Below, piece after piece: positions 5,950 through 64,000 of a DNA stretch of 64,000 bases. Location of the stretch: positions 84,134-148,133 of IMG/VR virus record IMGVR_UViG_3300023184_000035. The stretch is one strand, 5' to 3'. Each line of letters begins with the position of its first letter. Within the stretch, counting starts at the first letter, position 1. The translations under genes and the position numbers were made by a program. This stretch comes from a virus. Below the pieces are notes generated by a model that made no database searches, was not told the origin of the DNA, and saw only the letters and a list, made by a program, of their open reading frames with translations.

Positions 5950-6260
5950 AAAGTGGTGGTAGAACAACACATTGCAATCTAATAGGATCTTCTACTGCTG
6001 ATTGGTATCTTGTCCAATTGAATAAAACAAGTACCCGTGACACCAAAAGAGGTTTGTCCAAGCCAAATTGGTGTTCGAAAGAGACTCTCGGAAAGTCTCT
6101 TCGTTGACAACTAGAATTGGACAGGCTCATTTCTCAGGACGCGAGCTTGTCCCAAACGAGTATGCCAAGGAGGCCCGAGGTCTATCTATGCTCATCTCAA
6201 CTGCACTTTTGTCAACGTGATCTACTCGGGACTCCGCGTATAGCCACGTATTGGCAAGAA
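5950..6260 (+). ncRNA. Candidate structured RNA / cis-regulatory leader of sleB
   Basis: ~390-nt non-coding gap in a dense genome with multiple helices and long-range complementarities (see findings). Confidence 0.5.
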
Positions 6261-6271
6261 AAGGAAATCAA

Positions 6272-6847
6272 ATGAAAGTTAATACAAATCGGCCCAATGC
6301 ATTGGCATCGTGGTCATCTCGAGTTATCAAACTACTGGGACTGTTTTTGGTCATGCTGGTGGTTTGGAATGTGTGCCAAAGCAGATTGGCCTCACTACGA
6401 AGCGACCGGGCAGCCGGCATGGTGGGCTATGTGTCAGCAGAAGACAAATTACGACAATTGGATTGCCTAACCCGCAACATCTACTGGGAAGCAGCCTCAG
6501 AGCCGTTTGAGGGCAAAGTGGCAGTGGCGCAGGTCACGTTAAATAGAGTAGAGAGCGGCAGATTTGCCAACACTGTGTGCGGTGTGGTCTATCAAAAGAA
6601 CGTGTTCTATGAAAAGGTAGTTTGCCAATTCTCGTGGTTCTGCGAAGGCAATCACAAGGTCCGAGCAGTGTATCAGCCCATGTGGCAAGAAAGCGAACTA
6701 GTGGCCAAAAAAGTACTATTGGAGAACTTCCGATTGCCCGGCATGAAAAATGCGTTATACTATCATGCTGACTATGTAAATCCCAACTGGCACAAAGCCC
6801 GAATTGACAAAATTGGTCGTCACATCTTTTATGGAGAAAAATCATGA
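6272..6847 (+). CDS. Cell wall hydrolase, SleB/Hydrolase_2 family
   Basis: N-terminal TM; CL..NIYWEA..EP..GK.AVAQV.LNRV, CQFSW, YYHADYV.P.W, IGRHIFY. Confidence 0.92.
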   Translation: MKVNTNRPNALASWSSRVIKLLGLFLVMLVVWNVCQSRLASLRSDRAAGMVGYVSAEDKLRQLDCLTRNIYWEAASEPFEGKVAVAQVTLNRVESGRFANTVCGVVYQKNVFYEKVVCQFSWFCEGNHKVRAVYQPMWQESELVAKKVLLENFRLPGMKNALYYHADYVNPNWHKARIDKIGRHIFYGEKS

Positions 6848-10833: not shown

Positions 10834-11555
10834 TAACAAGCACCACAAATCAAGTTCCGGAGTTGCAAGGGTTAATTCTCATTGACTGTTGGGAACCAAG
10901 CCAGAAAACCCGCCTGGTCATAAATCAATTCTATCAAAACATAATTGACAGCACTGTACAACACAATTTTGTTTGTGTCATCAACAGCGGCAATAATATT
11001 TTGTTGGATTTAACAGATCACAGTTTTGCAAATTTGTTTTACCATCACTGCAACAACCGGTTGACTTGGCTGCCGGAACATTTACAACAACGACACAATC
11101 GTGTGATTGCCAACAGTTGTAGGTGGGCTGGTCAAAGTCACATCAACAAAGAATCACAAAGCAATTCTAGCTCTAGACTTTTACACAATCATTTCTTAAC
11201 CCAGGAACGCGGAATCTACATCATGGATCCGTTGGATCTTGTGTTTCATAACCAATTGGTATTTTCAGGCCAGGTCAAAAATTGGTTAATTGTTGGCCGT
11301 AGTTGGCAAATGTGTGTTCACAGCAATGGCCTAGGGCTCAACAATCTAGCAGAATTATCCAGCAGGTTTGACTTGAATTTTTATGCCACAGATTACAGTT
11401 TTTTAAAAGAAGATAATGAAACCATGGCCACGCATGCGGATTTTGAATCTGATGAACTGGAGTGGGCAGTTGTGAGCAACTTTGGGTATCAATTGGTACC
11501 GTCAACCAAACGCAACCGATACTCTGAAATACTTGCTAAATATCTTTATGCGTGA
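10830..11555 (+). CDS. Hypothetical protein, possible isochorismatase/cysteine-hydrolase-like fold
   Basis: N-terminal LILIDCW and later [10 protein letters not shown] resemble Asp…Cys motifs of that family. Confidence 0.4.
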
Positions 11556-12090
11556 ACACATCAACCTGGTAGAAGCCAGCACCAGACCGGCAAAATTAGA
11601 AACCACTCCCTTGCCCTACGGACCCAAGGACCTGGCACCTGTTATGAGTGCCGAAACCATTGATTATCATTTTGAACATTTGGCCAAAGGGTATGCCAAG
11701 CGTTACAATGCCGGAGAAGGCAATGCAGATTTCAATCGCGCTGGTAGCTTTTTACACAACAAGTTTTTCCCGCAACTGCAACCGGTCAAGGGCGCCAACA
11801 GACCTCGTGGTGCTGCACTTGCGTTGATTGAAGAGCACTTTAAAACCTACGAAGATTTCAAAGAAGCAGTTAAAGCGACTGCCATGAAGATACAAGGCTC
11901 GGGATGGGTGTACTTGAGCACTGGTGGTGAAATCAAAACCATTGCCAACCATGCTGTGCGCACAGATATATGCGTGTTGATTGACTGGTGGGAACATGCT
12001 TGGGCCCTGGACTATCAGTCAGATAAAGAAAAATATCTAGATAACATCTGGAAAATAATAGATTGGGACGTCTGTAACCAACGTCTGTAA
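11548..12090 (+). CDS. sod: Fe/Mn superoxide dismutase
   Basis: LPY…L.PVMS.ETIDYH…H, FLHN, GSGWV, DWWEHAW metal ligands. Confidence 0.93.
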   Translation: MREHINLVEASTRPAKLETTPLPYGPKDLAPVMSAETIDYHFEHLAKGYAKRYNAGEGNADFNRAGSFLHNKFFPQLQPVKGANRPRGAALALIEEHFKTYEDFKEAVKATAMKIQGSGWVYLSTGGEIKTIANHAVRTDICVLIDWWEHAWALDYQSDKEKYLDNIWKIIDWDVCNQRL

Positions 12091-47704: not shown

Positions 47705-48319
47705 ATGGAGCTAACATTACAACAACTAAAACAAATGGTGCCAGGCATACCCTATGCCGAACACTGGCTGGAAGCCCTGGATCAACTGCTGCCAGACTAC
47801 GAAATCAACACACCCGAACGCATTGCGGCTTTCATAGCACAGTGCGCACATGAGTCAGGTGGGTTTAAATTTATCAAAGAAAATTTAAATTACAAAGCCG
47901 CAAGTTTGCGCACAGTGTTTGGCAAATATTTCCCCACGGATGACTTGGCCAATGCCTATGCCAAAAAGCCTGAAATGATTGCCAACCGAGTGTATGCATC
48001 ACGCATGGGCAACGGTGACGAACACTCAGGTGATGGCTATCGCTATTGTGGTCGTGGACTTATCCAACTAACTGGCAAAAGCAACTATGAAAACTTTGCT
48101 GCCAGCTTGGAAATATCACCTGAAGAAGCAGCAGAATACCTGGCCACATTTGAAGGCGCCGCACAAAGCGCCTGCTGGTTCTGGGAAAGTAATAACTTGA
48201 ATGTGGAGGCTGACGCTGGCGACATCAAAAAGATGACCAAGAAGATCAATGGTGGTTATATTGGTTTAGAAGATCGTATTCATCACTATGAGAATGCATT
48301 AAAAATCATGGGAGCATAA
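47705..48319 (+). CDS. Endolysin, glycoside hydrolase family 19
   Basis: AAFIAQCAHESG, ENLNY, GRGLIQLTGK.NY, TKKINGG..GL.DR. Confidence 0.92.
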   Translation: MELTLQQLKQMVPGIPYAEHWLEALDQLLPDYEINTPERIAAFIAQCAHESGGFKFIKENLNYKAASLRTVFGKYFPTDDLANAYAKKPEMIANRVYASRMGNGDEHSGDGYRYCGRGLIQLTGKSNYENFAASLEISPEEAAEYLATFEGAAQSACWFWESNNLNVEADAGDIKKMTKKINGGYIGLEDRIHHYENALKIMGA

Positions 48320-58435: not shown

Positions 58436-59938
58436 ATGACAACTGTAGTAATCATGCCCGGGGGTTTTCACCCTTTTCACCCAGGACACTTGGCGCTGTA
58501 TCAATCAGCACAACGTGCCTTTCCTGATGCCGAAGTTTACGTGGCCGCTACCAATGACAAGAGTGACAGGCCTTTTGATATCTCAGACAAACAAAAAATT
58601 GCCTATGCCGCAGGAGTTGAACCTGGACATTTTGTTCAAGTCAAGTCGCCATTTCGTGCAGAAGAAATTGCCAGTCAGTACAATCCCAATCAGGATGTTT
58701 TGATTTTTGTGCGCAGTGACAAAGACGCCAACACACAACCTCAGGCAGGTGGAGTTAAAAAAGACGGGTCTGCCAGTTATCTGCAACCGTTGTTGGGTGC
58801 CCGACGATTGGAACCATTCAGCAAGCATGCCTACATGGCGTATTTGCCCACTGTGGAATTTGGTCCTACTGACATGACTTCTGCCACACAGATACGAGCG
58901 GCATGGCCCACGCTCACACCCAAACGTAGACTGGCCCTGGTCATGAGCTTGTATCCCAACACACAACAAGATCCAGCAGGCGCACAGGATATTGTACGCA
59001 TATTTGATCAAACCATTGGCGGGATTGATGAAGACATCAGTCGTAGAGGATTCCTACGAGGCATGGGTGCAGCAGCTGGCTTGGCCGCAGCCGGCACAGT
59101 TGGTGCACAGGAAACTTCCAAACCTAATTTTATAGCCATTGTCAAAATTGGCGATGATGTTCGACAACTTGATCTTGGAAACAAATTTAACAGTTCCCAA
59201 GAAGCCTTGGAATTTGTTGGTAACATCTTGTCCAAAAAAGGACTGCAAGGTTACACTGTGAACATTGCTCGTGGTCAACCCAAGACAAATGAGAACCAAG
59301 GCTGGGCAGCAACATTGGAATCAGACGGCATCACCACAGGAACTGGTGTCACAGGCGGCATGCATGCTGGATATCAAGATCGTTATAACCAGCCCATTGA
59401 TGAACGTGACCTTGGTTCTAAGTTGGGTAGCAAGCGTGACCAGGGCAAAAGTGTTCGCAAGTGGCGCAAAGAGCGTGGGCTTGATGAGCAAGACTACTTG
59501 GACGAAGCTCGCACTGACCCCATCCAAGCTGCCACTGTGGACTTTTATCAAAATCAAGTTGGTGATGTTGATAAAAAGCCTGTGGACAACTATCGAGAAA
59601 TTGCTAGAAAATTACTGGGGCAAACAGAAAATCCTGGCATGCGTAAGAAAATCATGGATATTCTTGTGCAAGGAAATAAAAATCCCTACATCCAAGGCGG
59701 CATCATAACCACAGTGGCTGCCATAGTAAGTGGTGGGATTTTGAGCAGTGCCAATCGAATGGGCCTTACCCCACAACAAACCAACATGATGTTGCAGGCC
59801 ATATTAAACACAGTGGTTCCCACTGTGGTGTCTAGACTCAACGGCAAGAGTTGGGCTGATACTGCCAAATACACCCTGGCCTCAGCAGGCATAGGCACAG
59901 GCATTGCTGCCATGACCGAAACAGGTCGCAAAAAATAA
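58436..59938 (+). CDS. Modular protein: HIGH-family cytidylyltransferase-like domain plus appended modules (internal Tat-like signal)
   Basis: PGGFHPFHPGH, SATQIR; after IDE at aa 199 SRRGFLRG + hydrophobic stretch. Confidence 0.8.
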   Translation: MTTVVIMPGGFHPFHPGHLALYQSAQRAFPDAEVYVAATNDKSDRPFDISDKQKIAYAAGVEPGHFVQVKSPFRAEEIASQYNPNQDVLIFVRSDKDANTQPQAGGVKKDGSASYLQPLLGARRLEPFSKHAYMAYLPTVEFGPTDMTSATQIRAAWPTLTPKRRLALVMSLYPNTQQDPAGAQDIVRIFDQTIGGIDEDISRRGFLRGMGAAAGLAAAGTVGAQETSKPNFIAIVKIGDDVRQLDLGNKFNSSQEALEFVGNILSKKGLQGYTVNIARGQPKTNENQGWAATLESDGITTGTGVTGGMHAGYQDRYNQPIDERDLGSKLGSKRDQGKSVRKWRKERGLDEQDYLDEARTDPIQAATVDFYQNQVGDVDKKPVDNYREIARKLLGQTENPGMRKKIMDILVQGNKNPYIQGGIITTVAAIVSGGILSSANRMGLTPQQTNMMLQAILNTVVPTVVSRLNGKSWADTAKYTLASAGIGTGIAAMTETGRKK

Positions 59939-60950: not shown

Positions 60951-63512
60951 ATGAACATTCATGAGTTGTCTACCTATAATCTTGCCGACGCAGTAAAGTT
61001 TCACCGCCGTCTCAATCCCAGAATCTGGGGGCGAGACGAGCATTTGCTTCCTGAAGTGCGTGAAAAATTACTCACCATTGCTGAGGACTTTCAAGAATTC
61101 TTGGGCGTTGACGATCTCAATGTTCAAGACATCACCATATCAGGCAGCAACGCAGCCTACTCCTATACAAAAAATTCTGACATTGACCTACACCTTGTGG
61201 TCGAGATGCCTGACGATCCTGTGTATCAGGAGCTGTTCACGGCAAAAAAATACCAATACAACTCTGAGCACAACATACGGATTGGTGGGGCCGAAGTAGA
61301 ACTGTATGTTCAGCCTGCAGATCAAGCGCACCACAGTCAAGGCATTTACTCGGTAAAAGACGGCGAGTGGATTCAAGTGCCGCAACGCAAACGTGCGCAG
61401 ATAGACGATACCTGTGTGCGTGACAAAACAGCAGATTTAGATTCAAGAATTCATGCTGCTGTCAAAAGTAAAAACATTGATGCCATCAGCACACTGTGGA
61501 CCAAGATTAAAACCATGCGTCAAGCAGGACTTGAACAACATGGTGAGTTTGGTTGTGAAAATATCTCTTTCAAATTGTTGCGCAACCAGGGTTGCATCCG
61601 ACTGCTTAAAGATGCGATGACTGCTGAAAAAGATCGCGGACTCAGTTTGCGTGAAACTCCTGCAAAACCATTCCGTTATGGATACGGTGCAGAAGTTGAC
61701 GAAGCCAGTCTAGCAGACATGCGATCAGCATTTGCTGCCACTGATGCCACACGCAAGCAAGAAGTGTTTCACAGTCCAGACGAATACAACAAGGTCATGA
61801 AGCAACGACAGGCCGCTGCTGATGAGCGTCAAGAAAAAATTGTAAAGATATCACGAGGCCCAGTAAAACCCTGGCCCATGGGTGTAAAAGAAGGCATGCA
61901 AAGTCAGCCTTACAGCACCAGTGATGGTGTTGCTGCCAGCACCAAACAGTTTTTAGAAGATGCAGAGTCTGATGACCAAACTCTTGTGCATGACTTTATT
62001 CAACACACTGCCATGGAACTGGGCATAGATCCCTTGCCTGAAATTCAGTTGCACACCGACCCTGAATGGAGCACACACAATCACAGTTTTGGTCGTTATG
62101 ACCCTGACACACATACGTTGAATGTCAGCATGCCCAATCGCCACATCCTGGATGTGTTGCGCACAGTGGCACATGAATTGGTGCATTGCAGTCAAAATCA
62201 ACAGCATGGTCACTTGCCTGATGATGCAGGTGAAACTGGCAGTGACTGGGAAAATGATGCCAATGCCCGAGCTGGTATCATCATGCGTGACTGGGCCAAC
62301 ACCCATCCCGAACATTTTGAATTGCCGGCTCTGCGCGAGAGTGTGAGTGATTACCAAATACACGATACTGAAAAATTGGATCGTGTGCTGGCCAAATGCT
62401 GTCAAATGATTGAACGTGGACAACAAACGGATCCTGAACGTTATGGGCAGGTGGCTGCGTGTATAATTGATCCTGATCACAACTATGTGTATGGCATCAA
62501 CTTGCCTGGCGCTGATGGCCGACGCCGACATGCTGAACGTGTGGCCATAGACCGATATCGTAAAACACATGGTGATGTTCCTGAAGGCAGTATTGTGGTC
62601 ACCACACTGAGTCCTTGCAATGCACCCATGGATGAACGTGCAGGGAAGAGTTGCAAAGACCTGTTGAATTCAGTGGGCATACACAAAGTGTATTGTGGAT
62701 ACATTGACCCTACTCAGCATGACGATGCCGACGCTGACTTCACTGTGGGGCTCACACAAAATGATGAGTTATGGGAAGCATGCAAAGCATTTGCTGACAC
62801 ATTCCTGCATGAAGATGAGCTAGAAGAAGGTTGGCGCAGTGCATTGGCCGGAGCCGCTGCCGCAGGTGCCATGGCATTTACACCAGCACCAGCCAACTCC
62901 ACAGCCGCACCTGCATTAAATCCCGCAGCACAACCCGCTGCCGTTCAACAAGTACAACAGACTGGGCCACAAGCTGCATTGACCAAAGCCGCACAGGCAG
63001 CAGGCATCAAAGGTACAGAACTGGCGCAGTTCATGGCACAATGTGAACATGAGAGTGGTAACTTTGCACACCTGGAAGAACTGGGCGGTAAAAATTATCT
63101 TGCCAAGTACGATCTCACAGTGAATCCTGCCAAGGCCAAGGCCCTGGGCAACACTCAAGCCGGAGACGGTGCCAAATACAAAGGACGTGGGTTTATACAG
63201 ATCACAGGCAAAGCCAACTATGCCAGTGCTGGACAGGCCCTGGGCATAGACCTAGTGAGCAATCCTGAGCTGGCTGCCAAACCTGACGTGGCTGCCAAAG
63301 TTGCTGTGTGGTACTGGCAGAATCGTGTGAAACCGTATGTGCAAGACTTTAGTGACACACGTGGGGTTACCAAACGCATCAATCCTGGCTTGCAAGGCTT
63401 GCAAGACCGAGTGGACAACTTCAAAGATTATCAACAACAAACAGCCACTGTGGCTGCACCACCAGCTAGAGTGGCAGCCGCACCACAGGCTCAACCAGGA
63501 CCAGCAGCATGA
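60951..63512 (+). CDS. Multidomain protein: Pol-beta-type nucleotidyltransferase + zincin + Zn-deaminase + GH19 lysozyme
   Basis: GSNA.Y.Y…SDIDLH…ELYVQ; AHELVH…END; HAE…SPC…C; AQCEHESG…GRGFIQITG..NY…TKRIN. Confidence 0.85.
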   Translation: MNIHELSTYNLADAVKFHRRLNPRIWGRDEHLLPEVREKLLTIAEDFQEFLGVDDLNVQDITISGSNAAYSYTKNSDIDLHLVVEMPDDPVYQELFTAKKYQYNSEHNIRIGGAEVELYVQPADQAHHSQGIYSVKDGEWIQVPQRKRAQIDDTCVRDKTADLDSRIHAAVKSKNIDAISTLWTKIKTMRQAGLEQHGEFGCENISFKLLRNQGCIRLLKDAMTAEKDRGLSLRETPAKPFRYGYGAEVDEASLADMRSAFAATDATRKQEVFHSPDEYNKVMKQRQAAADERQEKIVKISRGPVKPWPMGVKEGMQSQPYSTSDGVAASTKQFLEDAESDDQTLVHDFIQHTAMELGIDPLPEIQLHTDPEWSTHNHSFGRYDPDTHTLNVSMPNRHILDVLRTVAHELVHCSQNQQHGHLPDDAGETGSDWENDANARAGIIMRDWANTHPEHFELPALRESVSDYQIHDTEKLDRVLAKCCQMIERGQQTDPERYGQVAACIIDPDHNYVYGINLPGADGRRRHAERVAIDRYRKTHGDVPEGSIVVTTLSPCNAPMDERAGKSCKDLLNSVGIHKVYCGYIDPTQHDDADADFTVGLTQNDELWEACKAFADTFLHEDELEEGWRSALAGAAAAGAMAFTPAPANSTAAPALNPAAQPAAVQQVQQTGPQAALTKAAQAAGIKGTELAQFMAQCEHESGNFAHLEELGGKNYLAKYDLTVNPAKAKALGNTQAGDGAKYKGRGFIQITGKANYASAGQALGIDLVSNPELAAKPDVAAKVAVWYWQNRVKPYVQDFSDTRGVTKRINPGLQGLQDRVDNFKDYQQQTATVAAPPARVAAAPQAQPGPAA

Positions 63513-64000
63513 GAGCACATGAATTTTTACGTGAAGATGTTGAGAATTTTCCCATTGCCAATGTACGTAGACCCAATGGTGCCATTGGCAACCAAGGTGT
63601 GAACACGGAGCAAGCAGCCGATGTGTTGACTCATGCTGCCGGCATGCAGGTATCGCCAGACTGGACCATGCGACAGTTAGTGGATGCGCTACGGGCTGAT
63701 CCTGCGGCACAACAACGTCTGCGACAATTTGTGCAAAAAAATCCCATCACAGTGTCTGCCCTACCAGATGGTTCATATCATTTGCTGGATGGCCATCACA
63801 GAACATTTTTGCTGAACCTGCTGGGCGATGAAACAGTGCCTGCTATTGTTAAAGAAGGTGTGGCGGAAGGCTTGACAGAAGCAGCCATGTCTAACGCTGT
63901 AACATTTTTTAGAGGTGAGCCAATACTTTCACAAGAAAGATTAAATCAATTAAAATCAAGCATAGGCAAACCTTACCCTATACTAAGGAAAGAAGGATCA
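63509..64000 (+). CDS. Partial modular protein with ParB/Srx-like domain (3' truncated)
   Basis: MRAHEFLRE N-terminus; PITV…LLDGHHR…VPAIV; then KEGVAEGLTE linker; frame open to window end. Confidence 0.75.
   Translation, partial: MRAHEFLREDVENFPIANVRRPNGAIGNQGVNTEQAADVLTHAAGMQVSPDWTMRQLVDALRADPAAQQRLRQFVQKNPITVSALPDGSYHLLDGHHRTFLLNLLGDETVPAIVKEGVAEGLTEAAMSNAVTFFRGEPILSQERLNQLKSSIGKPYPILRKEGS

Follow-up and report, generated by a model that had tools for sequence, protein, structure and literature searches.

Why would a phage protein of several enzymes carry what looks like an export signal behind its first 626 residues, directly in front of a cell-wall hydrolase domain? The question is raised by open reading frame (ORF) 60951-63512 in the window analysed here, that is, the whole stretch of 64,000 nucleotides from position 84,134 to position 148,133 of the IMG/VR virus record IMGVR_UViG_3300023184_000035, which forms the final 64 kb of that 148,133-bp record. 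Here we report that this leader has a clear anatomy, is conserved, is linked to the GH19 module that follows it and is exchanged in homologues between a Sec-like form and a twin-arginine translocation (Tat) form; that the cassettes of the family have exact boundaries; and that related genomes encode a Peptidase_S77 prohead protease. The model that fits best, and to which we give about even credence, is that the protein would be packaged in the capsid, cut there and injected, and that its GH19 part would then be exported by the new host. The gene and its parts are listed here in window coordinates.

60951..63512, plus strand: gene for a modular ("polyvalent"-type) protein of 853 amino acids; its stop codon overlaps the ATG of the next ORF (ATGA, 63509-63512)
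60951..61652, plus strand: module 1, nucleotidyltransferase-like, residues 1-234 (PHROGs phrog_36119 at 8-233, E-value 1.3e-40)
61941..62339, plus strand: module 2, zincin-like candidate peptidase with an HExxH motif (H408-H412, 62172-62186), ending in L461-R462-E463 (62331-62339)
62340..62828, plus strand: module 3, cytidine/dCMP deaminase (PF00383, dCMP_cyt_deam_1, at 476-583, 42.4 bits, cut-off 25)
62820..62828, plus strand: joint L624-E625-E626, a candidate T4-type prohead-protease site with a predicted cut after E626, from [LIVMA]-x-E conservation and module boundaries
62829..62894, plus strand: leader G627-A648, 22 residues, with N649-S650 next
62895..62966, plus strand: Ala/Pro/Gln-rich linker, residues 649-672, predicted to be disordered (predicted local distance difference test score, pLDDT, below 50) and variable among relatives
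62967..63440, plus strand: module 4, GH19 muramidase/chitinase-fold domain, residues 673-830 (PF00182 at 685-792, 52.9 bits, cut-off 25.5)
63441..63509, plus strand: Ala/Pro-rich C-terminal tail, residues 831-853, from its sequence

Full-length relatives of the 853-residue protein, with 77-89% identity, are found on independent contigs. By its predicted domains the protein counts as polyvalent, the nucleotidyltransferase, deaminase and GH19 assignments being firm and that of the peptidase drawn from the HExxH motif and weak matches. Module 1 is about 35% identical to stand-alone cyanophage proteins annotated as nucleotidyltransferases, and its N-terminus, M-N-I-H-E-L, is kept in relatives. For the HExxH module, profile and Atlas cluster matches were weak (Tox-MPTase3, E-value 0.033; eCIS_core, E-value 0.04; IrrE/M78-like Atlas clusters, 0.90) and no confident peptidase-family assignment was obtained from them. 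The deaminase has its motifs in place (H-A-E at 527-529 and P-C...C at 555-568) and ends in an acidic stretch with L624-E625-E626. The GH19 domain is modelled by AlphaFold with a pLDDT above 90 and matches the solved phage GH19 endolysins 7r6s, 9ms7 and 4ok7 with E-values of 6e-24 to 3e-20. A 16-sequence alignment shows no variation at its catalytic residues, E701 (the H-E-[ST] general acid) and E710, and on the strength of family profile and catalytic Glu pair we predict a muramidase/chitinase of the phage-endolysin type. Pfam matches and motif positions thus bear out the description in an earlier note on this DNA, which had placed the end of the deaminase at E626, followed by a leader, a Pro/Ala/Gln linker and a complete GH19 domain.

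The leader and its link to the GH19 module

The leader has the layout of a Sec-type signal peptide cut by signal peptidase I, namely a basic n-region, an h-region of 7-15 residues and a small-x-small c-region. Its n-region is G-W-R (R629), its h-region is A631-F643 (13 residues, mean Kyte-Doolittle value 1.70) and its c-region is T-P-A-P-A, in which A646-P647-A648 places an A-x-A directly before N649. What a Sec-type signal would also have, a position at the N-terminus, is lacking in the intact chain: the leader begins at residue 627 of 853, no conserved internal start precedes it, and it would become N-terminal only through the proposed cleavage. An internal translation start, which the earlier note had named among the results that would overturn its view, was considered and rejected, as no in-frame ATG or GTG lies ahead of the leader and the TTG codon at L632 is TTA in two relatives (L098 and L099). 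In the AlphaFold model the leader is a short helix of low confidence, and neither it nor the linker forms part of the confidently folded GH19 domain. As the note had claimed, only the GH19 module of this protein has such a leader: it is the sole uncharged Ala/Gly-rich run behind an [LIV]-x-E motif within the ORF, and it is without R-R.

Across the 22 leader codons, comparison with three relatives, one of which has an unrelated upstream module, gave 19 synonymous changes and 6 replacement changes, all conservative, and the linker beyond the leader varies freely across relatives. This pattern indicates that the segment is under purifying selection in the reading frame of the polyprotein.

We surveyed 265 metagenomic relatives collected by two protein searches, 239 with a GH19 domain and 26 without. 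An uncharged Ala/Gly-rich run lies upstream of GH19 in 235 of the 239, at a distance of at most 120 residues in 234, and a comparable leader was seen in only one of the 26 relatives without GH19. In non-GH19 relatives the identical deaminase C-terminus continues into ParB-like, DUF6934 or other modules with no leader between them. Among leader-bearing homologues the upstream module varies and may be zincin-like with HExxH, a deaminase, an amidoligase, GNAT, DUF6934 or phosphatase-like.

The joint is conserved together with the leader. In 228 GH19 homologues an [LIVMA]-x-E motif stands within 14 residues ahead of the run, mostly 3-5 residues ahead, and the residues that follow the joint Glu are mostly G-W-K, G-W-R, D-W-K or D-W-R. 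E-G-W-K also occurs at joints with no subsequent hydrophobic run (L024 of genome G009; P0049, residue 493), and because of this G-W-K may belong to the context of the joint or cut site and not to the n-region. The 203 distinct leaders share the signal-peptide layout, with a median hydrophobic core of 16 residues that is 39% Ala and 24% Gly. Such short Ala/Gly-rich cores suit a signal peptide, or one resembling the signal-arrest-release (SAR) type, and not a stable membrane span. Taken together, these comparisons support the view that the leader is a conserved, export-signal-like element specific to the GH19 module, and not a chance linker.

Exchangeable leaders and movable cassettes

In 19 GH19 homologues the equivalent position, directly behind [LIV]-x-E, is occupied by a twin-arginine (R-R-x-F-L) leader. 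The NCBIfam model TIGR01409 (cut-off 16.7 bits) was passed by six of nine tested GH19 homologues, at internal positions such as 394-415 of 594 residues, and by seven of all ten proteins tested when ORF 58436-59938 of the window is included. The swapping of two mechanistically distinct export signals at one position argues that the position encodes export.

ORF 58436-59938, a cytidylyltransferase-like gene, contains the only other such internal run among the real genes of the 148-kb contig, and it is of the twin-arginine type, so that Sec-like and Tat-type leaders sit in window genes two ORFs apart.

59024..59110, plus strand: second buried leader, in ORF 58436-59938; I197-D198-E199 followed by a twin-arginine leader at residues 200-225

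The earlier note had spoken of a second export signal behind an LxE-type site. This ORF supplies one by TIGR01409 (17.2 bits at 201-221), and the Pfam model TAT_signal stays below threshold on it (17.8 bits, cut-off 22.7). The Tat-type leader and a module of about 58 residues (approximately residues 200-283) form an insertable cassette: in 412-residue relatives without the insert, a V-A-E-type joint runs straight into the N-Q-G-W-A-A-T module. No family match was found for the small module or for the hydrophobic C-terminal part of this ORF. Of the other leader-borne cargo, which comprises this module and two families in L006, L028 and L044, the members scanned against Pfam gave no confident match, and this cargo neither supports nor contradicts a periplasmic destination.

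Larger rearrangements follow the same joints. Extra cassettes are inserted at L461-R462-E463 (query residues 460-468) in P0003, P0007, P0008, P0009 and P0012. In P0007, which is 81% identical and lies on a 37-kb IMG/VR contig (L006), the insert at the L-R-E joint comprises about 340 residues (approximately 463-801) and holds a second leader, of the twin-arginine type, with an unknown module, upstream of the deaminase. In sixteen homologues the chain continues beyond GH19 into further modules, and some of these are also found as cassettes of their own, with a targeting-like N-terminus. Such architectures would make sense only if the chain were cut at its joints, because an uncleaved P0007 would keep its muramidase in the cytoplasm. 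The gene next to the polyprotein gene is itself a cassette in free form.

63509..64000, plus strand, running off the contig end: ParB-like nuclease module as a separate gene, with a nine-residue capsid-targeting-like N-terminus ending in L-R-E

Its relatives have 277 residues and are followed by a GP88-family gene. As a free gene, here, the ParB-like module begins after L-R-E; in other phages, where it directly continues the deaminase, it begins after L-N-E. Whether fused or free, the modules have their boundaries exactly behind the joint Glu.

The leader-GH19 cassette also occurs alone. These stand-alone forms, of 209-260 residues, start with M-[RK]-x-x-E-[FIL], reach an [LIV]-x-E within about ten residues and continue into the leader and then GH19. 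The strict targeting-like N-terminal pattern was found in 102 of the 251 relatives that start with Met, and one related polyprotein begins M-R-V-T-E-F-I-A-E. On the window's own contig, targeting-like N-termini number 9, against about 1.3 expected. As an observation in its own right, an Fe/Mn superoxide dismutase at 11548-12090 of the window (Sod_Fe_C, 76.6 bits) has a likely start that gives a targeting-like N-terminus ending in L-V-E, and this enzyme too is possibly loaded into the capsid.

The record is estimated by CheckV to be about 42% complete, which implies a jumbo phage genome of about 350 kb. Its nearest cultured relatives, judged by the ClpB-like ATPase and the DnaB-like replicative helicase, are PA5oct and Atu_ph07, both jumbo phages, and its tail or virion proteins are about 40% identical to counterparts in marine cyanomyophages. 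Peptidase_S77 was found above its curated cut-off in PA5oct and Atu_ph07, and in three of five large IMG/VR contigs that bear GH19 homologues. In one of these three contigs, G006 (258 kb), the protease, whose gene lies at L106:9739-10398, is followed by a scaffold-like protein and then by the major head protein. Residues 1-43 of this head protein include four [LIV]-x-E sites, and in the scaffold-like protein such sites number 22, where 10 would be expected. Candidate starts with a targeting-like N-terminus number 21 in this genome (about 5 expected), and the genes concerned include one cluster that adjoins the head module and another that contains the leader-GH19 polyprotein. Also beside the head module, a 192-residue protein with a targeting-like N-terminus (L106:4161-4736) matches phrog_15752 (E-value 1.3e-13), the family of the T7 gp0.7-type kinase that shuts off host transcription, and may be an injected kinase.

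Elsewhere in the window, ORF 6251-6847 is a wall-hydrolase candidate of the SleB type (Hydrolase_2, 90 bits). At 47705-48319 the ORF that the earlier note had called a stand-alone GH19 endolysin is present, with 204 residues, and its GH19 match of 22.5 bits falls below the Pfam cut-off of 25.5. With the GH19 domain of the polyprotein, these two make three muralytic candidates in the window. Scans of the window for sigma-70 promoters and for terminators returned counts at the level of shuffled sequence.

Proposed unmasking in the capsid and its rivals

From these comparisons we infer cleavage, packaging, ejection, export and a purpose for periplasmic activity along the following lines. The 853-residue chain would comprise four independent cassettes, of the kind known from T4 internal proteins or polyvalent proteins, and would enter the prohead, where it would be cleaved by a T4-type (Peptidase_S77) prohead protease behind the Glu of the [LIV]-x-E joints, L624-E625-E626 included, and the cut at E626 would make G627-A648 the new N-terminus of the GH19 cassette, with its resemblance to a Sec-type or SAR-like signal peptide. 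Before cleavage the signal would be masked by 626 residues of cytoplasmic enzyme with an acidic end, and the wall of the producing cell would therefore be out of reach of GH19. Ejected with the DNA into the cytoplasm of the next host, the freed cassette would be exported by host Sec, or by Tat in the twin-arginine homologues, and would attack peptidoglycan once in the periplasm; the other three cassettes (nucleotidyltransferase, HExxH and deaminase) would remain cytoplasmic. The earlier note had likewise proposed a packaged muralytic effector, released by the prohead protease and reaching the periplasm or membrane after ejection, and as a whole this interpretation is partly supported. What the homologues support by comparison is that the leader is exchangeable with twin-arginine leaders, and that free forms of the cassette family start with a peptide like the T4 targeting sequence.

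Several observations weigh against unmasking in the capsid. The 228 conserved joints represent sustained constraint and not independent origins, because most descend from one ancestral cassette. The h-region of the leader is only weakly hydrophobic, the cores of its homologues being 63% Ala plus Gly, and Pfam TAT_signal (PF10518) gave no match at an E-value of 0.01 or below on ten twin-arginine homologues. The N-terminus of the 853-residue protein, M-N-I-H-E-L, is only loosely like a targeting peptide, has no Glu at position 9-10, and is perhaps no more than a part of the nucleotidyltransferase fold. The neighbours of the gene are DnaJ, ClpB-like and DNA polymerase genes and not head genes, and the T4-type late promoter TATAAATA has three matches in the 64 kb, not above chance and none near the polyprotein gene. 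A profile search of the window's own contig for Peptidase_S77 and Gp23 found no match; this weighs little, because the record is a fragment of about 42% and more than half of the genome is absent from it. Among cultured phages, megablast found zero close DNA relatives and tblastn matched the GH19 core or the nucleotidyltransferase only, never the leader, so that the arrangement was found in none of them. Lastly, the benefit of a periplasmic muramidase at the start of infection is unexplained.

The main rival to unmasking in the capsid places both processing and export in the producing cell. The chain would be cut in the cytoplasm, by the HExxH module or another enzyme, and leader-GH19, never packaged, would be exported while that infection is still under way, to serve as a wall remodeller or as an endolysin of auxiliary or SAR type. 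It could draw on the HExxH module that the protein itself carries, on the proposal that polyvalent proteins are processed by their own metallopeptidase domains (PMC5512222), on the position of the gene among early or middle-type genes and on the SAR-like Ala/Gly-rich composition of the leader, and it requires no unexplained benefit at entry. We nevertheless regard it as unlikely, since many members with leader and [LIV]-x-E have no peptidase module, including stand-alone forms whose N-terminal peptide of 9-11 residues resembles the T4 capsid-targeting sequence; the P3/P1 pattern agrees with S77 proteases, whose place of action in T4 is the interior of the prohead (PMC9026906); and other candidate wall hydrolases for lysis are already on the contig.

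Alternatively, the hydrophobic segment may be a helix that enters the envelope from the periplasmic side. A virion GH19 protein would leave the tail at entry and its helix would anchor in or open the inner membrane without Sec or Tat, much as is seen with ejectosome proteins and with tape-measure proteins that have muralytic domains. Known virion muralytic enzymes (T4 gp5, T7 gp16, T5 Pb2) do act from outside and do not enter the cytoplasm, and in the h-region a small-xxx-small spacing is of a kind that would favour the packing of helices. Against this stand the homologues with twin-arginine signals, positive by a curated model and of a kind read at the cytoplasmic face, at the equivalent position; the A-x-A ends and the basic residue just before the h-region, which are features of signal peptides; and the median core of 16 residues, which is short for a membrane span. 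We judge this explanation improbable.

An uncleaved signal-anchor is more doubtful still. The product would then be bitopic in the inner membrane, its three other enzymes facing the cytoplasm and GH19 the periplasm; this N-in/C-out topology, with a large cytoplasmic domain, is common in bacteria. The core of 13 residues is too short and weak for a stable span, as are those of the homologues, and the two leaders of P0007 flank the deaminase and would leave GH19 in the cytoplasm. Post-GH19 modules in 16 homologues, some of them also separate targeting-like cassettes, are a further difficulty, and [LIV]-x-E and the stand-alone N-terminal peptide would have no role. Least probable of all, and very much so, is a functionless segment (an Ala-rich linker of low complexity, a remnant left by gene fusion, or the beginning of a GH19 protein whose translation starts internally), for although Ala/Pro-rich tails and linkers are frequent in the polyprotein ORF and its neighbour, and an in-frame ATG at M641 and the TTG at L632 behind a purine-rich stretch are at hand, the leader is kept with conservative changes beside a freely varying linker and is replaced by Tat-type leaders, not lost, the TTG gives way to TTA in the relatives named above, and a start at M641, a residue not conserved in distant homologues, would remove the h-region.

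Returning to unmasking in the capsid, we suggest more generally, with confidence slightly short of even, that a widespread uncultured lineage of T4-related jumbo phages may use, on interchangeable cargo cassettes, an addressing code made up of a targeting peptide, [LIV]-x-E joints and Sec or Tat signals that become active after the cut, to deliver periplasmic enzymes from inside the cell. If so, phage-ejected proteins would not be confined to the cytoplasm: host Sec and Tat would place enzymes in the periplasm of the newly infected cell, which would join the known reach of injected effectors. With capsid proteolysis as the switch, the signal would have no effect in the cell that makes the protein, which would explain how a muralytic domain could be produced in abundance without premature lysis. 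Targeting peptide, [LIV]-x-E and leader would together provide a sequence rule for finding such cargo in metagenomes.

Comparison with known systems

The arrangement combines known kinds of element, and our literature search turned up no paper that describes it; a search of full texts for internal signal peptides in proteins that phages eject returned nothing relevant. The study on polyvalent proteins proposed that these multidomain effectors are packaged, processed and injected, with self-processing by an embedded peptidase and breaching of the wall at entry (Iyer et al. 2017, PMC5512222); it mentions a signal peptide or transmembrane segment zero times, and the 2021 jumbo-phage survey from the same group likewise has no mention of either. 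The protein described here resembles the polyvalent proteins in its combination of metallopeptidase-like, lysozyme-type, ParB-like, GNAT, nucleotidyltransferase and deaminase-type domains across the family, and differs in that its joints fit a capsid protease and its wall hydrolase has an export leader of its own.

The closest precedent for the proposed route is given by the internal proteins of T4. The T4 capsid-targeting sequence comprises the first ten residues of IPIII, in which targeting depends on residues 4 and 7 and processing on residues 8 and 10 (PMC9026906). Proteins joined to this sequence enter the capsid, are trimmed there by gp21 and pass into the cell that is infected (PMC9026906, PMC3012670). 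As in IPI, IPII, IPIII and Alt, the free-standing members of the present family have a short N-terminal E-F-[IL]-x-E peptide and an [LIV]-x-E cut pattern, diverse cargo stands behind a constant address, and an S77 protease is encoded in related genomes. The T4 cargo consists of single small proteins that act in the cytoplasm, whereas the family of the 853-residue protein chains enzymes through internal joints, and Sec-like or Tat-type leaders behind a predicted cut site have not been reported for T4.

The remaining comparisons concern where and when a muralytic domain is let loose. As in signal-peptide and SAR endolysins, such as P1 Lyz and phage 21 R, the domain stands behind a weakly hydrophobic Gly/Ala-rich leader of the kind that uses Sec, and its activity would be withheld until the right moment. 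Those endolysins are small late proteins that serve in lysis and begin with the leader itself, whereas here it is buried 626 residues into the chain, or behind a targeting-like propeptide, and its exposure would need proteolysis. Virion-associated peptidoglycan hydrolases (T4 gp5, T7 gp16, phiKZ gp181, T5 Pb2) belong to the tail or core and approach the wall from outside, without a Sec or Tat signal; as we propose for the GH19 cassette, the particle carries their muralytic domain into the next host, and unlike them the cassette has a Sec-like or Tat-type leader. Flavivirus and pestivirus polyproteins provide the nearest parallel for export signals inside a polyprotein that send single products across a membrane. 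Their internal signals act co-translationally at the endoplasmic reticulum and are cut by signal peptidase, whereas the signal described here would be exposed post-translationally by a capsid protease, and would act in another cell.

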